DNA of 64,000 nucleotides, from the NCBI RefSeq assembly GCF_001677475.2, contig NZ_CP015229.1. One strand, 5' to 3'. A model generated the notes under the pieces. It had not been told where the DNA came from. It ran no database searches and saw only the letters and a list, made by a program, of their open reading frames with translations. The position numbers and the translations under genes were made by a program. Source of the stretch: Escherichia coli (lineage in GTDB: Bacteria > Pseudomonadota > Gammaproteobacteria > Enterobacterales > Enterobacteriaceae). Of the stretch, positions 4,956-44,204 are shown one piece after another; the first letter of the stretch is position 1, and each line of letters starts with the position of its first letter.

Positions 4956-6209
4956 ATGTGCGAACATCATCATGCCGCGAAGCACATCCTGTGCTCGCAG
5001 TGTGACATGCTGGTGGCGTTACCGCGCCTTGAGCATGGTCAGAAAGCGGCATGTCCCCGGTGTGGCACAACGTTAACCGTGGCGTGGGATGCCCCTCGGC
5101 AGCGTCCCACCGCCTATGCGTTGGCTGCACTGTTCATGCTGTTGCTGTCCAACTTGTTTCCTTTTGTGAATATGAACGTTGCAGGAGTTACCAGTGAAAT
5201 TACATTACTGGAAATTCCCGGCGTGCTTTTTTCTGAGGACTACGCCAGCCTCGGCACCTTTTTCCTGTTGTTTGTGCAACTGGTTCCCGCGTTTTGTCTG
5301 ATAACCATTCTGTTACTGGTGAATCGCGCGGAATTACCGGTCCGTTTAAAAGAGCAACTGGCACGGGTGCTTTTTCAACTCAAAACCTGGGGAATGGCGG
5401 AGATTTTCCTTGCGGGTGTGCTGGTCAGTTTCGTTAAACTGATGGCCTACGGCAGCATTGGTGTCGGCAGCAGCTTTCTCCCCTGGTGTTTATTTTGTGT
5501 CCTGCAACTGCGCGCCTTTCAGTGCGTTGATCGTCGCTGGTTGTGGGACGATATCGCCCCGATGCCAGAACTGCGCCAGCCGCTAAAACCTGGCGTCACG
5601 GGGATACGTCAGGGGCTGCGTTCTTGCTCCTGTTGTACGGCAATCCTTCCTGCTGATGAACCCGTATGCCCGCGCTGTGGTACTAAAGGGTACGTTCGGC
5701 GTAGAAACAGCCTGCAATGGACACTCGCGCTGCTTGTAACGTCCATCATGCTGTATCTTCCGGCTAATATTTTGCCCATCATGGTGACGGATTTATTAGG
5801 CTCGAAGATGCCATCGACGATTCTCGCTGGGGTCATCCTGTTATGGAGCGAAGGATCTTATCCCGTCGCTGCGGTTATCTTTCTGGCCAGTATTATGGTG
5901 CCAACGTTAAAGATGATCGCCATAGCGTGGTTGTGTTGGGATGCCAAAGGGCATGGCAAGCGCGACAGTGAAAGAATGCATTTGATTTATGAAGTTGTTG
6001 AGTTTGTAGGCCGCTGGTCGATGATTGACGTTTTCGTTATCGCGGTGCTCTCGGCGCTGGTGCGTATGGGAGGTTTAATGAGTATTTATCCGGCAATGGG
6101 TGCATTAATGTTTGCTTTAGTCGTCATAATGACAATGTTTTCTGCTATGACGTTTGACCCGCGTTTGTCGTGGGATCGTCAACCTGAATCAGAGCATGAG
6201 GAGTCCTGA
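4956..6209 (+). CDS. pqiA: Paraquat-inducible membrane protein A
   Basis: 417 aa, N-terminal Cys clusters, polytopic membrane protein, followed by pqiB and pqiC. Confidence 0.9.
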   Translation: MCEHHHAAKHILCSQCDMLVALPRLEHGQKAACPRCGTTLTVAWDAPRQRPTAYALAALFMLLLSNLFPFVNMNVAGVTSEITLLEIPGVLFSEDYASLGTFFLLFVQLVPAFCLITILLLVNRAELPVRLKEQLARVLFQLKTWGMAEIFLAGVLVSFVKLMAYGSIGVGSSFLPWCLFCVLQLRAFQCVDRRWLWDDIAPMPELRQPLKPGVTGIRQGLRSCSCCTAILPADEPVCPRCGTKGYVRRRNSLQWTLALLVTSIMLYLPANILPIMVTDLLGSKMPSTILAGVILLWSEGSYPVAAVIFLASIMVPTLKMIAIAWLCWDAKGHGKRDSERMHLIYEVVEFVGRWSMIDVFVIAVLSALVRMGGLMSIYPAMGALMFALVVIMTMFSAMTFDPRLSWDRQPESEHEES

Positions 6210-24554: not shown

Positions 24555-24590
24555 AAAAGGGGTTAGCATTTAGCTAACCCCTTATCTTAT
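24555..24590. terminator. Hairpin downstream of the serT 3' end
   Basis: ggggttagcatttagctaacccc stem-loop. Confidence 0.6.
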
Positions 24591-24792: not shown

Positions 24793-25812
24793 CTACTTAC
24801 TGACCACAAGCGGCAAATCCAGTGTTGGCGTGATTTTGGTTTTACGATCGTAAATCAACACCTGATTTTCTGTTTTGTGTCCACTGAAAATTTGTTTGTC
24901 GCGACTGCTGCCTTCGTAATCTGAAATCCCTTTGGCTTTTATGTCATGGAAGTTGCACCCAAACGGAACGCCGGCTTTTTGCTCGGCTGCACGTTTAGCC
25001 TGATTCCACCAGTTGTTCAGCGTCTTGGCTATTACCTTCCCGCCTTTGGTTGTGTTGATCACATACTCGCATGTGCCGGAAGATACATTTCGGGCTAACT
25101 GGATCGCCGTACGTAATCGCGGAGACCATTCCTTGATTTGTTTAGTGCCAGTCTTGTTTTGCTCAATGTAAATCCCTTTATCCATAATATCCTGCCATTT
25201 CAGCTCGAGTACATCACCGAGCCTTGCCGCACAAAGATAGGATATCTCCATTGCAATACGTAACTGTGGAATTGCTTCCGCATATATTGCTGCATACTGT
25301 TCATCGGTGATGTAAACAGTACGGGCTTTAAGTGTGAATTTTCTGACACCTTTGCATGGATTATTTTTCACATACCCACGCTCATATCCCCATCCGTATA
25401 CACGGCTCAGACTTGCCAGTTCATGGTTTGCCTGGGTCTTGCTCTCAAGTCCTCGCTTATCCATGAAAATTCTTACCTGTTCAATTTTTACATTATCAGC
25501 AAGCACTTTTCCGAATACTGCCAACAATGCCCTTTGATGTTGCCGATAATCTTTTTGGGTTCGGGGGGCCAGTTCTGTAAATGCAGGGGAGTCCATAAAC
25601 ATGTGCCATAATTTAGCTACTGTCATTATGTTGTGGAGTTTTGCTTTTTCCAGCTCATAATTTTGCCAGACTTTAGCTACGCTGGTTTCCCGCACTCTTC
25701 CGAGCCCTATAGTTCTTGTGCTTCCTTCGGGTTTCCATACGTAACTGTAACCGTTCGATCTAACACGCGGTGGTAGTGCATTATCTTTTTTGTTTTTTCT
25801 TGGTCTTCCCAT
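24793..25812 (-). CDS. int: Prophage tyrosine integrase
   Basis: 339 aa, adjacent to tRNA junction, C-terminal H-x-x-K...GH...Y catalytic pattern. Confidence 0.85.
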   Translation of the reverse strand: MGRPRKNKKDNALPPRVRSNGYSYVWKPEGSTRTIGLGRVRETSVAKVWQNYELEKAKLHNIMTVAKLWHMFMDSPAFTELAPRTQKDYRQHQRALLAVFGKVLADNVKIEQVRIFMDKRGLESKTQANHELASLSRVYGWGYERGYVKNNPCKGVRKFTLKARTVYITDEQYAAIYAEAIPQLRIAMEISYLCAARLGDVLELKWQDIMDKGIYIEQNKTGTKQIKEWSPRLRTAIQLARNVSSGTCEYVINTTKGGKVIAKTLNNWWNQAKRAAEQKAGVPFGCNFHDIKAKGISDYEGSSRDKQIFSGHKTENQVLIYDRKTKITPTLDLPLVVSK

Positions 25813-26098: not shown

Positions 26099-28549
26099 TT
26101 AAAAATCAACCGGATTCGGGATCAGTTTTTGCCAGATTGCTGAAACGTATTTTGCCTGGTAACGAGCGTCATCAAGTGCATTATGGCGCTCACCTTCGAA
26201 TGGGATAGCTGTTCTGGCATCGAAGTCTATGGCTTTCCCCAGCTCAACGATTGTGCGTACATCGCGATCGTTGCAGTAGCGCCAAGGGCAGGGGATACCC
26301 TGTCGTTCGTATGAACGGCGTAAAATCACGTTGTCGAAGTTGGCCCCATTACCCCAGACCTGAACAAAAAATTCACCGGAGTTTTCGTCGATAAATTCCC
26401 GCAATTGCAGCAGTGCATCATCTAACGGGATTTCATCGGTCAGAATGGCAGATTGCGCCTCGCGTGATTGCTTAAGCCACCATTTTATGGTGTCACGATT
26501 AATGACTCCGCCAGCAGTTTCCAGATCGATGGTCTTACTAAATTCCGGCCCCATATCTCCGGTTTGCGGATCGAAAAATATTGCACCTATTGAGATAATC
26601 GGGGCATCGGGATTTTTTCCCATGGTTTCAAGGTCGATCATAAGATGGTCACATGACCTGCTTGTGGATGTGATATTGTGATAACCGTTCACCTTAATTA
26701 AGGGATCTGTTGCTTCGCCAGTTTCATTATCGCTGGCGTGATGCTGATTGCCTCCAGTGTTCTCCTTGTGTGGATGTTCAGCGCCTTCCATTTCCTCCGG
26801 ATCATTCTCCTGAGCTTCAACCTGATTCTCTTCATCGAATGTTTCCTGGTATGTTGCGTTTCCCATGACCGCGCCACAGTCAGGACAGTTGCCGCCGCTG
26901 CTCTGACCGCAGACGGTGCAGACTTTTTCCGGTTCCTGTTGCACTACTGGTTCGGATTGTTTCGTTTCTGGTTCGTTTTGTTGCGCATTTGGGCTGTTTT
27001 GTTCCGCTTTCTGGTCGTTCTGTGCCGTTTCTTGCTGGTTCTGGTTCACAGAATCGCGGGTTTCAATCCCCTTCACCCATTTCGGATCATTCGGGTCGCT
27101 AATCCCTGCAACAAATTCACCACGTGATGCAGCGAGCAACTGACTGGCGTCAGGCAGGCTGATATTGGCTGCCTGCATAATTTTGTTTACTTCGTCAGCG
27201 GTAACTTTTACCTGATTAACCGGATCTATCTGTGCCTGAGTATCCAGCGATTGCGTGTCCTGGCGAAGTTCAGTTGTATCCGGCTCCATTGCTTCAGTCG
27301 TTGCCTGTTCATCTGCCATTGCGTCAGACGGTTGTGATTTTTCATCATTATTTTTTTCTTCTTCTGTTTCGCGTTTAGCAGCCAGTTCGCGGTTAACTTC
27401 TTCCTGGATATCTTTTTCCGGTGTATGTCGTGCAGCAGCGAGAGTTTCTTCGGTAGGGTTCTCGTGATCAGTCTCCGTTAAGTGGGCGTTGATATACTCC
27501 TGAAGGCGTCCCGGGTAGAGATAAAGTTCAGGGTGAGCACTTCGGATAAGTGCAAAAATAGCGGCACGGGAATAATCCAGAATACCAGGGGTTGCGCGAA
27601 GTGCTGCGGACCATTCTTTGAACGGACTTTCTTTCTTCCGGACGACTTCTTTTGCGCGACGATAAACGCTGCCCGGAATTTCATAAATATTAAAATCCAT
27701 CGGAAGTGTGGCCGCTGCAATCTCCACATCCAGCGTATCGAAGGTGTGTACTAAATTCGGATTGCGATCGGTTTTGTTCCCGCCGCCAGCATTAGCACCG
27801 GAAGCCGTGCGGATGATGCGTGAAACACGATTCCCCTTCATCCACTCTTTTGTAAGCAGACCGCGATCGGTGTAGTCAGCGCCCAGGTATGCTTCGAAAA
27901 AAGCAGTCATCAGTCCCAGGTCTGAATTGCCAGGATTAGGGAAAACTTTGTCAGTGTCACGAACCAGTTTGTGGAGATCGCGAATTTCCAGCGGTTCGAG
28001 TTGCGCTGCTTTATTTGAGATGGCCAGCGCGGTAACGGCGGGAAGTTTTTCATCCTGTGCGTTATGTAATGCGCGCAGTTCGCCCCGCGAAACGTGAGTG
28101 ATCGGTTTTTCGCTGCCGTGCTGAGCAAGCCAGCGAATGGGAAGTATCTGGCCAGAAACCGGGAGTAGCATATTCTCCTCAATATCAGTCATGTCTTCGC
28201 CGTTGACGTTGGTATTGTCAGTGCTGGCTGGTTTATCCTGAACAGAGGGCGCGATAAATACCATTGTGATACCATCTTCCCCGCCTTTTTCGTATCGGTT
28301 GCAGAATTCGGTATCAAACACACCTTCCGGAGGCAGGTCATTCACAACGGGTAAATGGACGCGGACGGGTTTTTTAAAGTCGTCTTCATCATAATCGTTG
28401 TCATCCATTGCGGTAATACAACGGGAGATGGCAACAGATAATTTTTTTGCTGTGGTCCAGTAAAAACCACCTTTAATTCCCAGGCGTTTTCTGACTTTGT
28501 CATTTTTTGCTTCGCAATATAGCGCAAATTCTTCTTTTTCAGTGCTCAT
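26099..28549 (-). CDS. Large prophage exonuclease with C-terminal DnaQ-like (DEDDh) 3'-5' exonuclease domain and central acidic/Q-rich region
   Basis: 816 aa; C-terminus LMIDLETMGKN...HNALDDARYQA; CxxC...CxxC zinc ribbon; low-complexity E/Q/N-rich segment. Confidence 0.6.
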   Translation of the reverse strand: MSTEKEEFALYCEAKNDKVRKRLGIKGGFYWTTAKKLSVAISRCITAMDDNDYDEDDFKKPVRVHLPVVNDLPPEGVFDTEFCNRYEKGGEDGITMVFIAPSVQDKPASTDNTNVNGEDMTDIEENMLLPVSGQILPIRWLAQHGSEKPITHVSRGELRALHNAQDEKLPAVTALAISNKAAQLEPLEIRDLHKLVRDTDKVFPNPGNSDLGLMTAFFEAYLGADYTDRGLLTKEWMKGNRVSRIIRTASGANAGGGNKTDRNPNLVHTFDTLDVEIAAATLPMDFNIYEIPGSVYRRAKEVVRKKESPFKEWSAALRATPGILDYSRAAIFALIRSAHPELYLYPGRLQEYINAHLTETDHENPTEETLAAARHTPEKDIQEEVNRELAAKRETEEEKNNDEKSQPSDAMADEQATTEAMEPDTTELRQDTQSLDTQAQIDPVNQVKVTADEVNKIMQAANISLPDASQLLAASRGEFVAGISDPNDPKWVKGIETRDSVNQNQQETAQNDQKAEQNSPNAQQNEPETKQSEPVVQQEPEKVCTVCGQSSGGNCPDCGAVMGNATYQETFDEENQVEAQENDPEEMEGAEHPHKENTGGNQHHASDNETGEATDPLIKVNGYHNITSTSRSCDHLMIDLETMGKNPDAPIISIGAIFFDPQTGDMGPEFSKTIDLETAGGVINRDTIKWWLKQSREAQSAILTDEIPLDDALLQLREFIDENSGEFFVQVWGNGANFDNVILRRSYERQGIPCPWRYCNDRDVRTIVELGKAIDFDARTAIPFEGERHNALDDARYQAKYVSAIWQKLIPNPVDF

Positions 28550-28639: not shown

Positions 28640-28831
28640 TTAAAGTCCTGCCGGGACTTCGTTATTATCCATGCGAATAACTTTATCGACCGGATAACAG
28701 TTACCGGGAATTTTTTGTTCTGCTGCGGCAGCCATGCATTCTTTCATTGAACCGTATAAGCCAGTCACCAGCTCAAGAGATTCGCCGGAAACAAGATAAA
28801 CTGTCAGAACGAGTGCAAATGTTGTATTCAT
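28640..28831 (-). CDS. YdfD-like small protein
   Basis: 63 aa immediately downstream of the dicB-like gene, as in the Qin dicB-ydfD arrangement. Confidence 0.45.
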   Translation of the reverse strand: MNTTFALVLTVYLVSGESLELVTGLYGSMKECMAAAAEQKIPGNCYPVDKVIRMDNNEVPAGL

Positions 28832-29016
28832 TGTTTATATCCTTTTTGCCGCAGGTCCAGACGAGCCAGCATTGAAGGAATGCATACTTCATTTAACAGG
28901 TCCTGCTCGAGTGTTCTCTGCTTAATGGCGTCTTCAATAAATGTTTTGTCTCCGGTGATAACGCCAATTTCGAAACGAAGTTCAGACGTACTGGCATTGC
29001 ATGATAACTTTTCCAT
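28828..29016 (-). CDS. dicB: DicB-like cell division inhibitor
   Basis: 62 aa; FEIGV...EDAI..R...LLN..CI.SMLARL pattern matches DicB as recalled. Confidence 0.75.
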   Translation of the reverse strand: MEKLSCNASTSELRFEIGVITGDKTFIEDAIKQRTLEQDLLNEVCIPSMLARLDLRQKGYKQ

Positions 29017-29190
29017 TATCGCGTCCTCAACAATGAATTTTGTGATGCGGTGCCTGGTGCCTCCAGGTGACGTTAACCAGTTAACAATTAACGCCGGAGT
29101 ATTTCACGTTACGCCAGTAAAGGACCGCTTTACTGTTTTAACTGTTCCGCGTGCGCTTAGCCGCATTCACCGCATCACAAAATTCACTTT

Positions 29191-29245
29191 AAAAAGGGCG
29201 GACATCAGCCAGCAATGAAAACTGATGCCGCCAAAGGTACCAATC
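29191..29245 (-). ncRNA. dicF: DicF-like small RNA with intrinsic terminator
   Basis: Reverse strand reads TTTGGCGGCATCAGTTTTCATTGCTGGCTGATGTCCGCCCTTTTT, close to the recalled DicF sequence, immediately upstream of dicB. Confidence 0.5.
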
Positions 29246-29784
29246 AACATGGAGTGTTGCGGCGGGGTTGTCACTCAGGCGTATGGTCAACCTGACAACC
29301 CGGTGTCACCAGTGGGGGTAAGGAAAACCCCGCCATACTTACCGCCGCGCCATTTCGCGGAGTGCCACAACCGGAAGCGCACGGTCGACGAAAATTTAAC
29401 GACAGGCTATCTATGAACCATAAACCTCGCCGTGCGCTTTCGCGTTATGCCCTGACTTTTCAGGGAAATATCCTTTCAGTAAACTGTCAGTGCCGGATGT
29501 TCACCCGTGTCCGGCGCACGCACTCCACCTCACCCGTGGAGAACCCCTTAATTACCAACCCTCAGGAGAGTGAATGTTAAAATCAACTCTTATTGCTAAA
29601 TGCCTTTATCAAAATCGCATGGTAAGCAGCATTTCAATAGGCGAGTCTGCAGTTAAAAGTATTTTCGAAGAGTTCTTTCCCGGGCATGATTTTAATAAAT
29701 GGAATACCAAATTACCGCCAGCAGTTTCAACGCGTATTCTGAAAGCAACTGAAAGAGCAAGTACAATTCGCGTTAACTATTTCA

Positions 29785-30204
29785 TTAAAGATTTGTGGGA
29801 TCTTTGATATCCACAGAGCCTAAAGTATGTGCATATGGATGTGCTATTGTGCGCCCTCGCAGATTTGCATCATTTTCTAAATTCACTGAACGAAACAGGG
29901 CATCAACAAGGCTCTGTACAATGCAAAGGCAATCGAAGACTGTCGCTGTTTCTGTTTTGATTGATGAAAGAACATGGCCATTCACGCAAACAGAAATTAC
30001 CCGTTCATTAACATCGCTTTCCTGCTTTTGATTATCAGAACTATATAGCCCAGAAAAAGCATTGCGCACATTATGAACCATATTATCGATGGTTTCTTTT
30101 TCTACGGTACTCAGGTCAAGAGTCGCCAGTTGAGAACGAACTATATTCGCTGCCATTTCCTGGAATGGTACTGGTAAATCTTTAAATTCCATCGTCAACC
30201 TCAT
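29785..30204 (-). CDS. Hypothetical prophage early protein
   Basis: 139-aa ORF in the leftward early operon. Confidence 0.4.
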   Translation of the reverse strand: MRLTMEFKDLPVPFQEMAANIVRSQLATLDLSTVEKETIDNMVHNVRNAFSGLYSSDNQKQESDVNERVISVCVNGHVLSSIKTETATVFDCLCIVQSLVDALFRSVNLENDANLRGRTIAHPYAHTLGSVDIKDPTNL

Positions 30205-30207
30205 CAG

Positions 30208-30462
30208 TCAGTGGTTTTCAATCTCTCGTGAAACGTTTAATGCCGCGCTTTTTGCCAGAGTGGTAATATCCAGCTCCGCTGACGCCAGTTCTTTAGAGAG
30301 GTGCTCTTTGTTGTTAGCAGCCTGTTTCAGGTCATTAATGGCGCGTATCTTCCCGAACATCCATTCGTAAATTTCATCATCGGTATAGCCTGGTGCGATG
30401 ATGGTGGGTTCTGGTTTCTGCATGTCAGCTCCTTGTGGTTCGCATTGCCTGCTTTTAACCAC
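30208..30462 (-). CDS. Hypothetical prophage early protein
   Basis: 84-aa ORF; start may be the internal Met (MQKPEPTII). Confidence 0.4.
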   Translation of the reverse strand: MVKSRQCEPQGADMQKPEPTIIAPGYTDDEIYEWMFGKIRAINDLKQAANNKEHLSKELASAELDITTLAKSAALNVSREIENH

Positions 30463-30515
30463 GTCAGGCGAGGTGGTATCCTCTGAGGGGTCTGTTACTC
30501 GAGAGGAAATTGGTT

Positions 30516-30716
30516 ATGAATACAATCAAGTTTTCTTGCCCAGAATGTGGTGGCGAAGTCTTTGACACATCCTTTAAGCCGCAGGGCTCTGACAGTTTCG
30601 CGGGAGCCATCTGCAAAAATTGTGGTCACCTTGTAACTGAAGATGAGTCCTCGCAGTTCGATGACGAAATCGTTGATAATATCTTCGGCGCACTCACCAG
30701 AGATTTCCTGAAGTAA
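30516..30716 (+). CDS. Hypothetical zinc-ribbon protein
   Basis: CPECGG...CKNCGH pattern and GAGAGGAAA RBS; conflicts with antisense ORF 30495-30851. Confidence 0.35.
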   Translation: MNTIKFSCPECGGEVFDTSFKPQGSDSFAGAICKNCGHLVTEDESSQFDDEIVDNIFGALTRDFLK

Positions 30717-31116
30717 AAGCGCATGCCGTTTAGTTACCGCTCTGATCATTCTTACTTGTCCGGTAATGGCGCTGACATCAGTATAAAGCGCCATTGCTGC
30801 TTCTTTGCCGATCCCAGGATGCCTTCCATTCTGATGTTTGACTTCGCCCACTGAGAAATCCTCTGTTTCCCCTTAACGCCGGGGTAGCGGAACAAAAACC
30901 TGCTGCATAGTTAAAGTTGAACCCTGCCGTCATGTTCTTACGCCTCGGGCTGGCTACTTAACCCCTGACCACTGCCTGGTAACTCGAAGTATTGCCCTGC
31001 GTTTTGTGGGGCGGGGTGGGTTAGTAAAAATAGTTTATACAAAAATAAACTAAACAGTCAATATGCAACTTAACTCTTTGGCGAGGATAACCCCTGTTGA
31101 GAGGGGCTTCGGGGGA

Positions 31117-31404
31117 TTAAGGTGTTACAGGGAACTGTCGGCGGGCGTGAACTACGCTAACAATTTCAATGCCTGAAATTGTCACGCGGTATAGAATTAT
31201 GTAATTGGGGTGAGCAACAATTTCACGCAAACCCGGAACTCTGTCGCTTGGCGGGTATAAATACGGATGCTCAGATAATGGCAGGACGCAAGTCCTTAAG
31301 CGTTTCCACAAACGTTCTGCCGCATCTATATCAAAACGAGCAATATAGCTAGTTATATCATCCAAGTCGGCATCTGCGCTTTCGAGCCATAAAACCGGTA
31401 ACAT
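31117..31404 (-). CDS. RelE/ParE-family toxin
   Basis: 95 aa, small basic protein immediately downstream of a small antitoxin-like ORF. Confidence 0.6.
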   Translation of the reverse strand: MLPVLWLESADADLDDITSYIARFDIDAAERLWKRLRTCVLPLSEHPYLYPPSDRVPGLREIVAHPNYIILYRVTISGIEIVSVVHARRQFPVTP

Positions 31405-31596
31405 TTACTGCTTGCTCCGTTCCTTGCGCATGTTAGCAAAGCGTTCAGCCATTCTGCGTTCAACTTCGTCATGTGGGATGGCTGGACGTGGATCAGCAAG
31501 GCTTGCGGCCACTTTTGCACGCAGCCATTCGTTATAACTATTTTCTTGCTCGATGGTTTCAAATTCAGAAACCATTGGTGAAAGGGCTGTGTTCAT
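31405..31596 (-). CDS. Cognate antitoxin (small acidic DNA-binding protein)
   Basis: 63 aa from MNTALSPMVSEFE...; abuts the toxin start. Confidence 0.5.
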   Translation of the reverse strand: MNTALSPMVSEFETIEQENSYNEWLRAKVAASLADPRPAIPHDEVERRMAERFANMRKERSKQ

Positions 31597-31631
31597 GGCG
31601 AACCTCGTTTTGTAAGTGCTGGTAATTCTGC

Positions 31632-32027
31632 CTAGGTAACTTTTTGTTGTGCTGCTAGCCACCTTGCAACTATACGATCCATTGTCTCTTTTTTTTCCTT
31701 CATATCTTTAAGTATTTGCTGTTGATCTTCCTCTGGAAATGCCTCAAATGTTTGAAGTAGCTCCTTTTGCTTAGGAGATATTTTTAATATATCCTGTGTT
31801 TTGTCTTCTTTTTCTTCATTTAATGGTAAGAAAAACCAATGTTGGGGAAAACCCGTTACTTCAGATAGTTTATCTAGATTAGCTGCTGTAGGGCTTGATA
31901 TACCACAAACCCACCTTTGGACGGATTGTTGAGCAATACCAATTCTGCGCGCAAGCTCTGCTTGACTCCAGCCTTTTTCTAATAGAAGCATCTTAATTCT
32001 AAGAGCACTAATTTCGAGTACGCCCAT
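31632..32027 (-). CDS. XRE-family HTH repressor (CI/RacR-like), paralog A
   Basis: N-terminal HTH LRIKMLLLEKGWSQAELARRIGIAQQSVQRW; C-terminal domain shared with the next ORF. Confidence 0.65.
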   Translation of the reverse strand: MGVLEISALRIKMLLLEKGWSQAELARRIGIAQQSVQRWVCGISSPTAANLDKLSEVTGFPQHWFFLPLNEEKEDKTQDILKISPKQKELLQTFEAFPEEDQQQILKDMKEKKETMDRIVARWLAAQQKVT

Positions 32028-32057
32028 CTGATATCTCTTGTTCCAGTATGTATCCCG

Positions 32058-32429
32058 TCAGGCTCGGCGACCTTGTCGCGCCAACCAACGTGCAACAAGA
32101 TCTTCCATTGCCTCTTTTTTATTTCTTAGTTCTTTTATGATCTCCTGCTGTTCATTATCAGGAAAAGCACTAAATATTTGTAGTAATTCCAATTGGTTAG
32201 GGGTTAATGCCATAGATCTTGATGACGAAGATTCTGTTGTGTCTTCAGGTTCCATATCAAGATAACCCCCAGGCATCCCATATGTTTGCTCAATACGTCT
32301 AGCTGCCTTTTCGCCAAACGTAGATTTACCGCTCATTAACTGAGATAAGTAACTTTTCTCTTTAGGCGGCAAAGTCCTGTCTTTGAACCACTCTTTGAGG
32401 CGTAAACGCCGAATCTCTTTTGTTTCCAT
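32058..32429 (-). CDS. HTH repressor, paralog B, divergent from cro-like gene
   Basis: C-terminus LTPNQLELLQIFSAFPDNEQQEIIKELRNKKEAMEDLVARWLA parallels paralog A. Confidence 0.6.
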   Translation of the reverse strand: METKEIRRLRLKEWFKDRTLPPKEKSYLSQLMSGKSTFGEKAARRIEQTYGMPGGYLDMEPEDTTESSSSRSMALTPNQLELLQIFSAFPDNEQQEIIKELRNKKEAMEDLVARWLARQGRRA

Positions 32430-32531
32430 ACATTCATTATCTTTAGTAATTGCAAAACAAGCAAATACTTGACTGGTTTATTTAGTTGCGTATAAACTTT
32501 CGCTTGTTCTAAATGTGCTGAGATAAAAATT
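32430..32531. promoter_or_regulatory. Divergent promoter/operator region of the immunity switch
   Basis: AT-rich intergenic region between divergent repressor and cro-like genes; AACAAGC/GCTTGTT inverted half-sites. Confidence 0.4.
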
Positions 32532-32819
32532 ATGACGCTAAAGGAATTCATCAAATCATTAAAAATTGGAGAAGCAAAAAAATTTGCGACCAACCTTGGT
32601 GTGTCTCCATCCTTCTTGTCCCAAATGGCATCTGGAACTTCACCTGTGTCTCCTGTTCGTGCGTTGATGATAGAAGCAGAAACTGGAGGACACGTTACAA
32701 GACGCGAATTGAGACCTAATGACTGGGAGCTTATATGGCCCGAATACACTGGAATCACGTCCCCTTCACGTCACAAATATGAACTTAACACCAAAAAGGC
32801 TGATGGGGTTGACTCATGA
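32532..32819 (+). CDS. Cro/YdaS-like HTH protein
   Basis: 95 aa; position and HTH as for Rac YdaS. Confidence 0.55.
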   Translation: MTLKEFIKSLKIGEAKKFATNLGVSPSFLSQMASGTSPVSPVRALMIEAETGGHVTRRELRPNDWELIWPEYTGITSPSRHKYELNTKKADGVDS

Positions 32820-33241
32820 TAATCAAGCATGAACACATCCGCATGGCGATGAATGCATGGGCGCATCCGGACGGTGAAAAAGTTCCGGCAGCTGAAATAA
32901 CCCGGGCTTATTTTGAGCTGGGTATGACGTTCCCGGAGCTATATGACGACAGGCATCCGGAAGCGCTGGCTCGTAATACCCAGAAAATTTTCCGCTGGCT
33001 GGATAAAGACACCCCTGATGCGGTTAAAAAAATTCAGGCGTTGTTACCAGCTATCGAAAAAGCAATGCCGCCTCTGCTGGTGGCCCGAATGCGCAGCCAC
33101 AGTTCAGCCTATTTTCGGGAACTGGTGGAGACGCGGGAACGACTGGTGAGAGACGCTGATGATTTTGTCGCAGTGGCGATCGCTGGTTTCAATCAGATGA
33201 ATCGTGGTGGTCCGGCGGGAAATGCCGTGGTGATGCACTAA
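32816..33241 (+). CDS. YdaT-like / CII-position protein
   Basis: 141 aa immediately after the cro-like gene. Confidence 0.4.
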   Translation: MIIKHEHIRMAMNAWAHPDGEKVPAAEITRAYFELGMTFPELYDDRHPEALARNTQKIFRWLDKDTPDAVKKIQALLPAIEKAMPPLLVARMRSHSSAYFRELVETRERLVRDADDFVAVAIAGFNQMNRGGPAGNAVVMH

Positions 33242-33248
33242 AAGCACG

Positions 33249-34232
33249 GTGTTCGGGGGTTTTATGAGCAGCAAGCTTCATGGTCTTGTCTGGGAAGGGT
33301 GCGCCTTCACTGGCATGATCTTATCCAGGGTGGCGGTTATGGCCCGTCTTGCAGACTACAGCAATGACGAGGGCGTGTCATGGCCTGCCATTGAAACTAT
33401 CCGGCGTCAGATCGGTGCAAGAAGTGAATCCACCGTGAAATCTGCTATTGCAGAACTGGCGAAAGAGGGCTGGCTGACGAAGGAAGAGCGTAAGGTCGGT
33501 GGGCGTAACGTAAGCAATATCTATCGGCTTAATGTGGAAAAACTCGAAGCAGCTGCAGCGGCGGCGCGTGAGGCATATAAACCGAAAAGAAAAATTAGCC
33601 CGGCAAAAAATGACCAGTTAACAGTTGACCAGTCAAATATTGCCCCATCAATGGTTGGCCCGTCAAATTTTGATGGATCAACTGTTGATAAAAAACTGCC
33701 GATTAGGGGGACGATGATTGACCCCGATCAGTCATTATTAAAACCTGATCCGTCAGATGAAAGATCTTCTTGTCCTGACGTTTCACTGCCGGACAAAAAA
33801 CAATCATCACCAGTTGAGCGATTTCTGGAGAAACACCCGGATGCGCATACCTGGAATGTGCAGAAGCGACAGTGGGGTACCCGTGAGGATGTCGCCTGTG
33901 CGCAGTGGATTTGGGGACGGGTTGTTGCGTTGTATGAACAGGCCGCCAGTGATGATGGTGAGGTATCACGCCCCAGAGAACCTAACTGGACGACCTGGGC
34001 GAATGATGTGCGCATGATGCGTATGCTGGATGGACGTAGTCACCGGCAGATTTGTGAAATGTTTGGGCGTGTCCAGCGGGATTCGTTCTGGGTAAAAAAC
34101 ATCATGAGTCCGGCAAAACTCCGGGAAAAATGGGATGAGCTGGTTATTCGTCTGGGGCGTTCGCCTGTACAGCGTTGCGTGAATCACATTTCTGAACCGG
34201 ATACCGAAATTCCGCCGGGGTTCAGGGGGTAA
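33249..34232 (+). CDS. Putative replication initiation protein (YdaU-like, N-terminal winged HTH)
   Basis: 327 aa; position in early-right operon. Confidence 0.45.
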   Translation: MFGGFMSSKLHGLVWEGCAFTGMILSRVAVMARLADYSNDEGVSWPAIETIRRQIGARSESTVKSAIAELAKEGWLTKEERKVGGRNVSNIYRLNVEKLEAAAAAAREAYKPKRKISPAKNDQLTVDQSNIAPSMVGPSNFDGSTVDKKLPIRGTMIDPDQSLLKPDPSDERSSCPDVSLPDKKQSSPVERFLEKHPDAHTWNVQKRQWGTREDVACAQWIWGRVVALYEQAASDDGEVSRPREPNWTTWANDVRMMRMLDGRSHRQICEMFGRVQRDSFWVKNIMSPAKLREKWDELVIRLGRSPVQRCVNHISEPDTEIPPGFRG

Positions 34233-34274: not shown

Positions 34275-34676
34275 ATGGGGGCTATTTATACCGAAGAACA
34301 GCGGGAAAGGTTACAGCGTCACATCGTTGACCTTGTACGTAAAAACGGGCGTATGACAATGCCACAACTGGCATCGGCAACATATGCTTCACATGATTCC
34401 ATTCGCCGGTACCTGAAGATGCTGGTGAGCCAGGGCGAAGTGTATGTTGTCAGCGGAAAAGGGGTATTCCTTTCAGAGAGAGTTTACCGTGAATGGCTGG
34501 CAAGTTCGGCAAAAAAATCAAGGGTTATCCGCAAACCAGCACAAAAACAGGGTAAGGCCGGAGTACAACCCTACGACCGGCACCAGAACGTAATTTGCCG
34601 GGAATGTCGTAACAGCGAATCAATGCAGCGGGTACTGGCTTTTTACAGGGGTGGATTTCAGGAGCTCGTATCGTGA
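34275..34676 (+). CDS. Hypothetical protein
   Basis: 133-aa ORF. Confidence 0.4.
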   Translation: MGAIYTEEQRERLQRHIVDLVRKNGRMTMPQLASATYASHDSIRRYLKMLVSQGEVYVVSGKGVFLSERVYREWLASSAKKSRVIRKPAQKQGKAGVQPYDRHQNVICRECRNSESMQRVLAFYRGGFQELVS

Positions 34677-43707: not shown

Positions 43708-44204
43708 TGCCTCCATCATTACGAAAAGCCGTTGCTGCTGCTATTGGTGGCGGGGCTATTGCTATAGCATCTGTGTTAATCACTGGCCCAGGTGGTAACG
43801 ATGGTCTGGAAGGTGTCAGTTACATACCATACAAAGATATTGTTGGTGTATGGACTGTATGCCACGGACACACCGGAAAAGACATCATGCTCGGTAAAAC
43901 GTATACCGAAGCAGAATGCAAAGCCCTCCTGAATAAAGACCTTTCCACGGTCGCCAGACAAATTAACCCGTACATCAAAGTCGATATACCGGAAACAATG
44001 CGCGGCGCTCTTTACTCGTTCGTTTACAACGTGGGTGCTGGCAATTTCAGAACATCGACTCTTCTTCGCAAAATAAACCAGGGTGATATCAAAGGCGCAT
44101 GTGATCAGCTACGGCGCTGGACATACGCTGGCGGTAAGCAATGGAAAGGGCTGATGACCCGTCGTGATATTGAGCGTGAAGTCTGTTTGTGGGGGCAGCA
44201 ATGA
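43707..44204 (+). CDS. SAR endolysin (T4-lysozyme fold)
   Basis: 165 aa; N-terminal Gly/Ala-rich SAR segment [18 protein letters not shown]. Confidence 0.8.

Follow-up and report, generated by a model that had tools for sequence, protein, structure and literature searches.

The window analysed here, 64,000 nucleotides (nt) of an Escherichia coli contig (NZ_CP015229.1, assembly GCF_001677475.2), carries an N-less lambdoid prophage of the Rac/Qin type whose early-left genes lie on the minus strand. Within it, a segment of 400 bases (30717-31116) had been flagged by a reading of the letters of this DNA alone, referred to below as the sequence-only reading. We found that this segment holds a conserved leader RNA of ~156-160 nt, which extends on the minus strand from about 31021 to 30866, beginning just after the predicted transcription start of the early-left promoter PL and reaching the ribosome-binding site of the first cistron. 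This widespread, well-supported and structured RNA is apparently undescribed; full-text searches of the literature, in which its motif sequences were also used, found no description of it. As to its role, the sequence comparisons lead us to favour, at somewhat less than an even chance, a cis-acting leader that decides whether transcription from PL becomes a productive full-length early-left message.

Conservation and distribution of the leader

A 1-kb query around the segment matched 4061 of the 5426 complete E. coli genomes, and most of these matches covered only a piece of ~160 bp (30866-31026) with no annotated feature. The 96-nt core of the leader was present in 3698 of the 5426 genomes, at 6078 places in total and at up to six per genome, with an identity of 90-99%. 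In all 12 matches sampled, no annotated feature lay under it. The copy of strain K-12 is located in the Rac prophage, between racR and a ydaG-like gene, and that of O157 Sakai in prophage Sp12 (NC_002695.2, 2249647-2249742, plus strand). The trac Rho terminator of Rac lies inside racR, upstream of the leader (PMC4150792). The leader is also carried by the functional phages Evi, Tritos and several vB_Eco isolates. Five other genera of the Enterobacterales have divergent copies: Pectobacterium (in two species), Prodigiosinella (with two copies), Serratia, Superficieibacter and Winslowiella.

The pattern scans of the viral and genome collections gave 98-120 distinct variants. When genome contigs were scanned with a 17-base pattern, most of the matches were chance ones in GC-rich genomes, and a covariance model, R1, was used to tell members apart. 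True members scored 82-114 bits with this model, as compared with at most 26 bits for the chance pattern matches in unrelated genomes. The window copy scored 114 bits (E = 4e-34) and is the sole copy in the 64 kb.

Copies of the E. coli type were also seen on contigs binned as Collinsella, Nanosynbacter and Lachnospiraceae metagenome-assembled genomes, and a Rac-like genome has been deposited as 'Actinobacillus phage vB_Apl-pPE4'. These odd host labels are probably the result of mis-binning or host mislabelling.

The 5' domain folds into a covarying hairpin

The covariation between variants indicates that the 5' domain of the leader (30961-31017; all features of the leader are given on the minus strand) is one long hairpin built of three helices, P1a, P1b and P2. 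P1a (5 bp, 31017-31013 with 30965-30961) is followed by a 3x3 internal loop, and P1b (4 bp, 31009-31006 with 30972-30969) by 4-5 nt that lie unpaired on the 5' side alone. P2 (7 bp, 31001-30995 with 30979-30973), which in the window copy has a tandem A.G/G.A in the middle of the stem, is closed by a terminal loop of 15 nt, CAAUAC-NNN-GAGUUA (30980-30994). Eleven of the 12 outer positions of this loop are invariant and the remaining one is at least 90% conserved, while the three middle positions are free.

For the examination of P2, a 31-nt ungapped alignment of 47 variants was anchored on the invariant loop. Compensatory changes were observed at all seven pairs, for example GCCGGG/CCCGGC, ACGAAG/CUUCGU, CGCUGAG/CUCAGCG and CAUCAGG/CUUGAUG. 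The covariation score of P2 was 0.458 versus 0.217 for the shuffled alignments, none of 500 of which reached it, and the slid registers gave at most 0.153. The whole domain was examined on a 96-nt MAFFT alignment of 40 variants that contained no gaps. In this alignment, 85% of the cells of the 16 pairs were paired and 15 of these pairs showed compensatory changes, with a covariation score of 0.396 versus 0.185 +/- 0.011 for the shuffles (again reached by none of 500) and at most 0.124 for the slid registers. P1b was paired in 97% of the cells, and all four of its pairs covaried. Independent minimum-energy folds of ~80 variants gave the identical 5' architecture nearly every time. RNAalifold, run on a plain MAFFT alignment of the whole element, returned only fragments, with the variable helices misaligned, and the anchored ungapped alignments were used instead. 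The fold of the 5' domain is thus strongly supported, on alignments that were not fitted to it. The fold energies of the window copy are ordinary; the structural case rests on the comparison of variants and not on stability. The signal that rises above chance in the leader is its conservation together with its covariation, both of which are invisible from one sequence.

The leader might also be a functionless mosaic linker that has spread recently, a recombination joint or a DNA-level site that is conserved by descent alone. The E. coli copies do show 90-99% identity and the mosaic boundaries around the block are sharp. However, the divergent copies in five other genera keep the helices by compensatory changes and ~45 positions stay invariant. 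Compensated helices and invariant positions across genera are not those of neutral DNA, and we consider this explanation very improbable.

The invariant core, the variable stem and the alternative 3' hairpins

The 5' domain is followed by a near-invariant and mostly unpaired core, YUAAGUAGCCAGCCYGAGGCNNNNGAACAUGACGGCRG (30924-30960), the conservation of which was recovered with either half of it as the search pattern. It can also be written YUAAGUAGCCAGCCYGAGGC-N4-GAACAUGACGGC, and it contains a GAGG and an AUG (30933-30931) that begins within GAACAU. A 3-bp hairpin, GCC[AGCCYGA]GGC, is possible in the core. The GAAC of the core (30937-30934) may pair with a GUUC (30893-30890) and enclose a hypervariable region (30923-30894). 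Both GAAC and GUUC are invariant, at a separation that ranges from ~40 to ~170 nt. In the variants that are not of the E. coli type, the hypervariable region holds a stem, P3 (UUGYUG/CAGYAG), which changes from G-C to G.U only. We infer the GAAC/GUUC helix and P3 from invariance or wobble, without true compensatory changes. The promoter context points to the minus strand for the leader, and the G-C/G.U variation of P3 would give A.C mismatches on the other one. In the Pectobacterium-type variants, which include related viral contigs, the P3 loop has gained a hairpin of ~120 nt with an energy of about -85 kcal/mol; this insertion, about 20-150 nt after GACGGC, leaves the remainder of the leader intact.

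Two short hairpins lie at the 3' end of the leader, beside the first ribosome-binding site, and they are mutually exclusive. Hairpin (b), CGCU[ACCCC]GGCG (30889-30886 with 30880-30877), is maintained among the variants as CACC/GGUG, CGGC/GCCG, CGCU/AGCG and UUCC/GGGA. Hairpin (a), CCCC[GGCGUUAA]GGGG (30884-30881 with 30872-30869), is maintained as ACCC/GGGU, GCCG/CGGC and GCCAG/CUGGC. The compensatory variants of hairpin (b) and the 120-nt insertion exactly at the tip of a stem count in favour of a structured leader.

Several further contacts were considered. A long-range pairing of the core GGCR with CGCY was rejected, as it is broken in exactly those variants where hairpin (b) covaries. A pseudoknot between the loop GGCGUUAA and UUAAGUAGCC was also discarded, since variants with GGCGACAA retain the same core. 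For the loop-to-core contacts GUA/UAC and GUUA/UGAC, all the bases are invariant, which is evidence neither way.

This anatomy resembles that of a riboswitch, and the generic features of one (a conserved core, covarying helices and a stem of variable length) are found in the leader. In such a sensor, the 5' domain, the core and the GAAC/GUUC helix would be the aptamer for a small molecule, an ion or a host RNA or protein, and would select hairpin (a) or (b). The choice would turn the first cistron's translation on or off, and polarity would carry the effect to the whole operon. The anatomy is aptamer-like in its covarying helices, its ~45 invariant junction and loop nucleotides and its variable-length stem; the mutually exclusive hairpins abut the ribosome-binding site, and the 3' end of the leader always adjoins a translation start. 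A phage that retains only the platform part, mEp460 (see below), also fits. Meanwhile, the link between aptamer and platform that the pairing of GGCR with CGCY would have given is broken where hairpin (b) covaries, hairpin (a) does not include the true Shine-Dalgarno sequence of ydfA, neither a candidate ligand nor a match to an Rfam riboswitch was found, and the first genes are heterogeneous. On balance, we regard a riboswitch-like sensor as unlikely.

A portable module at the head of the PL transcript

A PL-like sigma-70 promoter lies upstream of the leader (31031-31061, minus strand), with a -35 element TTGACT at 31061-31056 and a -10 element TATAAA/TAAACT (TATAAACT) at 31039-31032. It is overlapped by a perfect palindrome, TAGTTTAT-N6-ATAAACTA (31031-31052), which is likely the OL operator. 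The sequence suggests that transcription from PL starts near 31025. The PR promoter (32469-32498) has the identical TTGACT...TATAAACT hexamers and a related spacer, a likeness to be expected if PL/OL and PR/OR belong to a single immunity type.

An alignment of eight loci showed that the conserved block has sharp edges: the promoters and operators upstream are unrelated, and the divergence downstream begins right at the ribosome-binding site. The 121 distinct upstream sequences belong to more than 20 unrelated operator/promoter types. In most of them, a promoter of the form TTGACx-N16-18-TAxxxT ends 12-17 nt before the first paired base. This spacing from the -10 element implies that the RNA fold begins ~5-10 nt from the transcription start. 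At the other end, the first start codon follows 10-21 nt past the last hairpin of the leader in nearly all contexts, although at least 12 unrelated families are represented among the first genes after it, for example YdfA/DUF1391, YdaG, YdfC-like proteins and the product of a 118-amino-acid ORF. As both operators and first genes have been exchanged freely around it, the leader behaves as a portable module that goes with the start of the PL transcript and not with a gene or a repressor.

Its conservation independently of the downstream genes would also be expected if the leader or its 5' domain were cut from the PL transcript to act in trans, as a small RNA (sRNA), a decoy or an exclusion factor. 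Its C/A-rich 5' strand and conserved loop could be seed regions, and there is a precedent for a processed RNA, DicF, in the same operon; the P4 CI and P1 c4 RNAs may be likened to it as well. But neither a terminator nor a defined 3' end was found for such an RNA, as the hairpins have no U-tract, and it is not among the reported Hfq-bound RNAs of O157 Sakai. Action in cis is suggested by the fixed position of the leader, with the transcription start on one side and the first ribosome-binding site on the other. A precursor of a trans-acting RNA is therefore, in our judgement, improbable.

The upstream ORF does not explain the conservation

The invariant AUG of the core opens an upstream ORF of 51 codons (30778-30933, minus strand) with a GAGG located 9 nt upstream. 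Leader-peptide attenuation, in which GAGG-N9-AUG-ACG-GC would start the translation of a short ORF that governs Rho access or the downstream structure, draws on this arrangement. Nearly all variants have the Shine-Dalgarno-like GAGG and the AUG at an unchanged spacing of 9 nt, and gene callers extend ydfA from the invariant AUG in some phages. However, this ORF encodes 86 distinct products of 4-134 amino acids among the variants, with only MTA(G/V) in common. Its frame and stop switch with 1-nt indels in a C-run among close relatives, and one variant has AUA in place of AUG. Just three codons are thus conserved in a frame of 4-134 codons, and the spacer and ~20 nt upstream are also invariant, which is beyond a coding or ribosome-binding constraint.

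Since the noncoding positions around the upstream AUG are equally invariant, a leader peptide does not explain the conservation. The upstream ORF is probably incidental, and we rate attenuation by a leader peptide as a poor prospect, slightly below that of a trans-acting RNA. The upstream ORF and the N-terminal extension of ydfA were also rejected as a conserved coding unit because their length and frame vary.

Comparison with known leaders and early-operon RNAs

A permissive scan of the region 29000-33500 with Rfam 15 (E up to 1) detected only DicF and STnc100, both outside the leader. Like lambda nutL, the leader is placed after PL and before the first early-left gene, and it heads a long operon in which xis and int come last. 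In contrast to nutL/N, it has neither a boxA nor a boxB-type hairpin with a GNRA-like pentaloop, and the phages that carry it have no N gene. For boxA (YGCUCUUUA/CGCUCUUA), the pattern GCTCTTWA occurred only once in the window, at 44007 (plus strand), which is not near PL, and the identification of the leader as nut was rejected for the lack of boxA there. No N-like protein was found among the early-left ORFs of the window (with Pfam, and with NCBIfam for the 118-amino-acid and the YdfC-like ORF), and the annotation of Tritos includes Q and no N.

The closest parallel in position is put of HK022 and HK639. It is likewise a structured RNA immediately after PL in a lambdoid phage without N, an annotated non-coding leader, and it shares with our leader a NANNAT-type hexamer followed by G. 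The putL RNA is promoter-proximal in the PL transcript and has a NANNAT -10-like pattern at +23-28 (PMC9378689); the leader is similarly placed, with 12-17 nt between the -10 element and its first paired base in the majority of the upstream sequences. The two differ in that put of HK022 has ~70 nt (126 nt are annotated in HK639) and two stems, while the leader has ~160 nt and another architecture, and in that put stands in both the PL and PR operons, whereas the leader is a single-copy element of PL only. As Rfam 15 holds no put model, put was compared directly. Homology was rejected: R1 gave no match in the HK022 immunity region, which has both putL and putR, or in the whole HK639 genome (E up to 10), nhmmer found no hit between the HK022/HK639 put sequences and the leader, and blastn-short found words of at most 10 nt only.

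Two small resemblances were seen in this comparison. In the PL leader of HK639 (34313-34385, minus strand), upstream of the annotated putL-like RNA, AAGUUAGCCAGC resembles the invariant core AAGUAGCCAGC. The put RNAs have AACCAUGCG, as compared with GAACAUGACG in the leader. These may be due to chance, and R1 detects neither.

The leader could also be an antiterminator in the strict sense of put, which would act purely on the RNA polymerase and have no role in translation. A promoter-proximal position in the PL transcript like that of putL (PMC9378689), carriers without N and a terminator inside the operon all agree with this, and the invariant GAACAU fits the NANNAT -10-like pattern described in putL (PMC9378689). 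On the other side stand the lack of similarity to the HK022 or HK639 put in sequence or structure, the lack of a PR copy, the location of GAACAU ~95 nt from the start, far past the +23-28 of putL, and the existence of mEp460 without the element. We consider a strict antiterminator of this kind improbable, if slightly less so than a trans-acting RNA.

Other comparisons were less close. The mgtA, corA and ribB leaders gate Rho-dependent termination via the translation of the first short ORF. Like the leader described here, they are long and structured 5' RNAs whose junctions contain invariant nucleotides, with a stem that varies and with hairpins that exclude each other near a ribosome-binding site; here, however, there is no candidate ligand or defined Rho site, and the linking helix has no covariation support. 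The EAR (eps-associated RNA) of Bacillus, ~120 nt within a long operon, is thought to bring about processive antitermination without a dedicated protein. It differs in that it belongs to another phylum, shows no similarity (no Rfam hit) and stands inside its operon rather than at the 5' end. DicF shares the operon and strand of the leader, but it is an antisense sRNA of 53 nt that arises by processing and has an Rfam family of its own, and the leader bears no similarity to it. An RfaH ops-like reading of GCGCAGUAG/GCAGCAGG was rejected on inspection, as key ops bases differ and the motif is inconstant between types. The sRNAs AgvB, AsxR and Pas were set aside as well; they are late-region sRNAs, and AgvB and AsxR already have Rfam models.

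Proposed action of the leader

The slot of the leader makes a role in termination or antitermination plausible by analogy with nutL and putL, and we infer that it would be the functional counterpart of lambda nutL or HK022 putL while being unrelated to either. In the mechanism that we favour, the leader would exert its effect in cis, on its own transcript. The elongating RNA polymerase or a host factor would read the folded 5' domain together with the invariant core, and the alternative hairpins at the 3' end would couple that state to the loading of ribosomes on the first cistron. Ribosome loading would in turn protect the transcript from premature termination, whether Rho-dependent or intrinsic. 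At stake would be the early-left message with its small first genes, DicF, dicB, exonuclease VIII, xis and int. The reasons for preferring this mechanism are the nutL/putL slot, the carriers without N, a long operon with the DicF terminator in it and the 3' hairpins on the first ribosome-binding site. The DicF terminator, a strong hairpin with CUUUUU, stands within the operon and upstream of dicB, exo, xis and int.

Several observations weigh against this cis-acting role. No terminator and no unambiguous sequestering platform could be defined in the leader. Its folds are also no more stable than those of its shuffles, with z-scores of +1.47 (173 nt), -0.53 (5' domain) and +0.82 (3' part). The wobble counts in the 5' domain (22 G.U cells versus 33 A.C cells) do not settle the strand. 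R1 found no second or PR-side copy in the window or in the complete genome of Tritos. Phage mEp460_ev081 has a similar PL-ydfA-dicB operon, but in its region 2430-2530 no more than the final ~30 nt of the leader are left (GUUCCGCUACCCCGGCGUUAAGGGG). This is either a natural deletion or an alternative module, and the 5' domain and core are consequently dispensable in at least one phage. Finally, Tree et al. 2014 report no Hfq-bound RNA or crosslink peak at the Sp12 copy of Sakai, although their data were obtained from lysogens, where PL is expected to be repressed.

The flagged segment and its flanks

On the minus strand, the flagged 400 bases comprise a hairpin next to the ParE gene, the PL-like promoter with its palindromic operator, the ~160-nt leader and the beginning of the first cistron. 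Here the immunity region meets the early-left operon. The sequence-only reading had put the segment inside that operon, which has to be corrected: it runs from the end of the immunity/toxin-antitoxin transcript over the PL promoter and operator to the early-left 5' leader. Its description as ORF-poor holds for 30852-31116, where no ORF of 60 or more amino acids exists on either strand, but not for 30717-30851, which is overlapped by a minus-strand ORF of 118 amino acids.

The hairpin quoted in that reading, CCCCT-GTTGAG-AGGGG (as RNA, CCCCU[CUCAAC]AGGGG), is present at 31091-31106 (minus strand), directly 3' of the ParE stop codon (31117) and upstream of the -35 element. As a minus-strand RNA, it is moderately stable, with an energy of -13.5 kcal/mol (z = -1.9), and eight of 200 shuffles folded equally well. 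Its tail, UUAUCCUC, has no U-tract, and the scan for terminators found no minus-strand terminator-like site in 30000-33000, this hairpin included. It is missing from the homologous Evi and O157 loci of the eight-locus alignment. The stem is G+C-rich, but in view of the absent U-tract the hairpin was rejected as an intrinsic terminator. It gives the repressor/PaaR2-PaaA2-ParE transcript a weak, terminator-like end. It lies outside both the conserved leader and the early-left transcript, and as a local feature it is of little interest.

Thus, of the several G/C-rich hairpins claimed for the segment, the quoted one exists and the plural is not borne out by the folding energies. The evidence cited for an RNA there falls away, with the hairpin outside the conserved element and the fold energies ordinary. 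The suggestion that the segment could hold an sRNA, a terminator or antiterminator site or small peptides survives in so far as a conserved structured RNA is present; a small functional peptide is unlikely given the length of 4-134 codons that is switched by indels. Conservation among related prophages, the lack of which had been named as counter-evidence, is clearly there. The earlier observation is therefore partly confirmed, and its interpretation is partly supported on grounds other than those given.

The candidate first cistron after the leader is the 118-amino-acid ORF (30495-30851, minus strand), which starts with a GUG at 30851 and, with an AGAGGA 8 nt upstream, has a good start context. 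It gave no Pfam or NCBIfam hit. On the opposite strand lies an ORF of 66 amino acids (30516-30716, plus strand) for a zinc-ribbon protein of the ECs_2282 family with a CxxC...CxxC pattern (NCBIfam, 57 bits). The 118-amino-acid ORF is annotated in some phage records, while RefSeq calls the ECs_2282 gene, which this ORF fully overlaps, instead. If the ECs_2282 gene is real, it is antisense within the early-left operon.

Prophage context of the leader

Upstream of the segment, domain searches and the ORF list place, on the minus strand, a DicA/CI-like repressor (32058-32429), a PaaR2-like helix-turn-helix (HTH) regulator (31632-32027), a PaaA2 antitoxin (31405-31662) and a ParE toxin (31117-31404). 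The three-component toxin-antitoxin module (31117-32027, minus strand) sits between the prophage repressor and PL, which is the position of rexAB in lambda. The neighbouring paralogous ORFs at 31632-32027 and 32058-32429 (minus strand) both match the DicA model. The first has a clear HTH, and the second shows a C-terminal match only, with no Pfam hit. YdaS/Cro-like, YdaT/cII-like and O-like genes are found to the right of the immunity region.

The early-left operon continues on the minus strand, with a YdfC-like ORF of 84 amino acids without a Pfam match and, 1.6 kb downstream of the leader, DicF (29196-29245). The DicF homologue scored 44.1 bits, slightly below the Rfam gathering score of 48, and an STnc100-like match (29039-29184, minus strand) scored 38 bits against a gathering score of 47. 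Both would therefore be overlooked by default annotation. They are followed on the same strand by DicB (28828-29016, Pfam match), a DUF1482/YdfD-like ORF (Pfam DUF1482), exonuclease VIII (26099-28549), an excisionase-like ORF and the integrase (24793-25812). Three of the early-left ORFs, of 118, 84 (YdfC-like) and 139 amino acids, have no Pfam match, and the others correspond to DicB, DUF1482 and DUF4224. A strong bidirectional terminator with a perfect stem of 11 bp (24557-24583) stands just past the integrase gene; it marks the prophage/host boundary and adjoins yccA-like and tusE-like host genes.

Significance of the leader

Among the regulatory leaders of phage early operons, a known kind of RNA, the leader forms a new family. 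In Rac/Qin-type prophages, the PL start can be located with the model R1 and with the motif AAGUAGCCAGCCYGAGGC-N4-GAACAUGACGGC, and both are therefore useful for annotating these prophages. If functional, the leader is among the commonest conserved non-coding elements of E. coli and has so far been left unannotated, with 6078 copies across the 5426 genomes. It heads an operon of the division inhibitors DicB, DicF and Kil, a RecE-type exonuclease and xis/int. In cryptic as well as active prophages, it could thereby determine how host killing, recombination and excision are turned on.

It is possible, though doubtful, that an undescribed class of regulatory leaders exists in most E. coli, K-12 (Rac) included, and is either an RNA that reprograms the polymerase or blocks Rho without a phage protein, or a riboswitch-like sensor. 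N-less lambdoid prophages would use it to gate their toxic early-left genes (kil, dicB and DicF) and the genes for recombination and excision. If this is true, it would bear on the question of how lambdoid phages without N express their long early operons, and the leader would be a third solution beside N/nut and put, or else a new sensory RNA.

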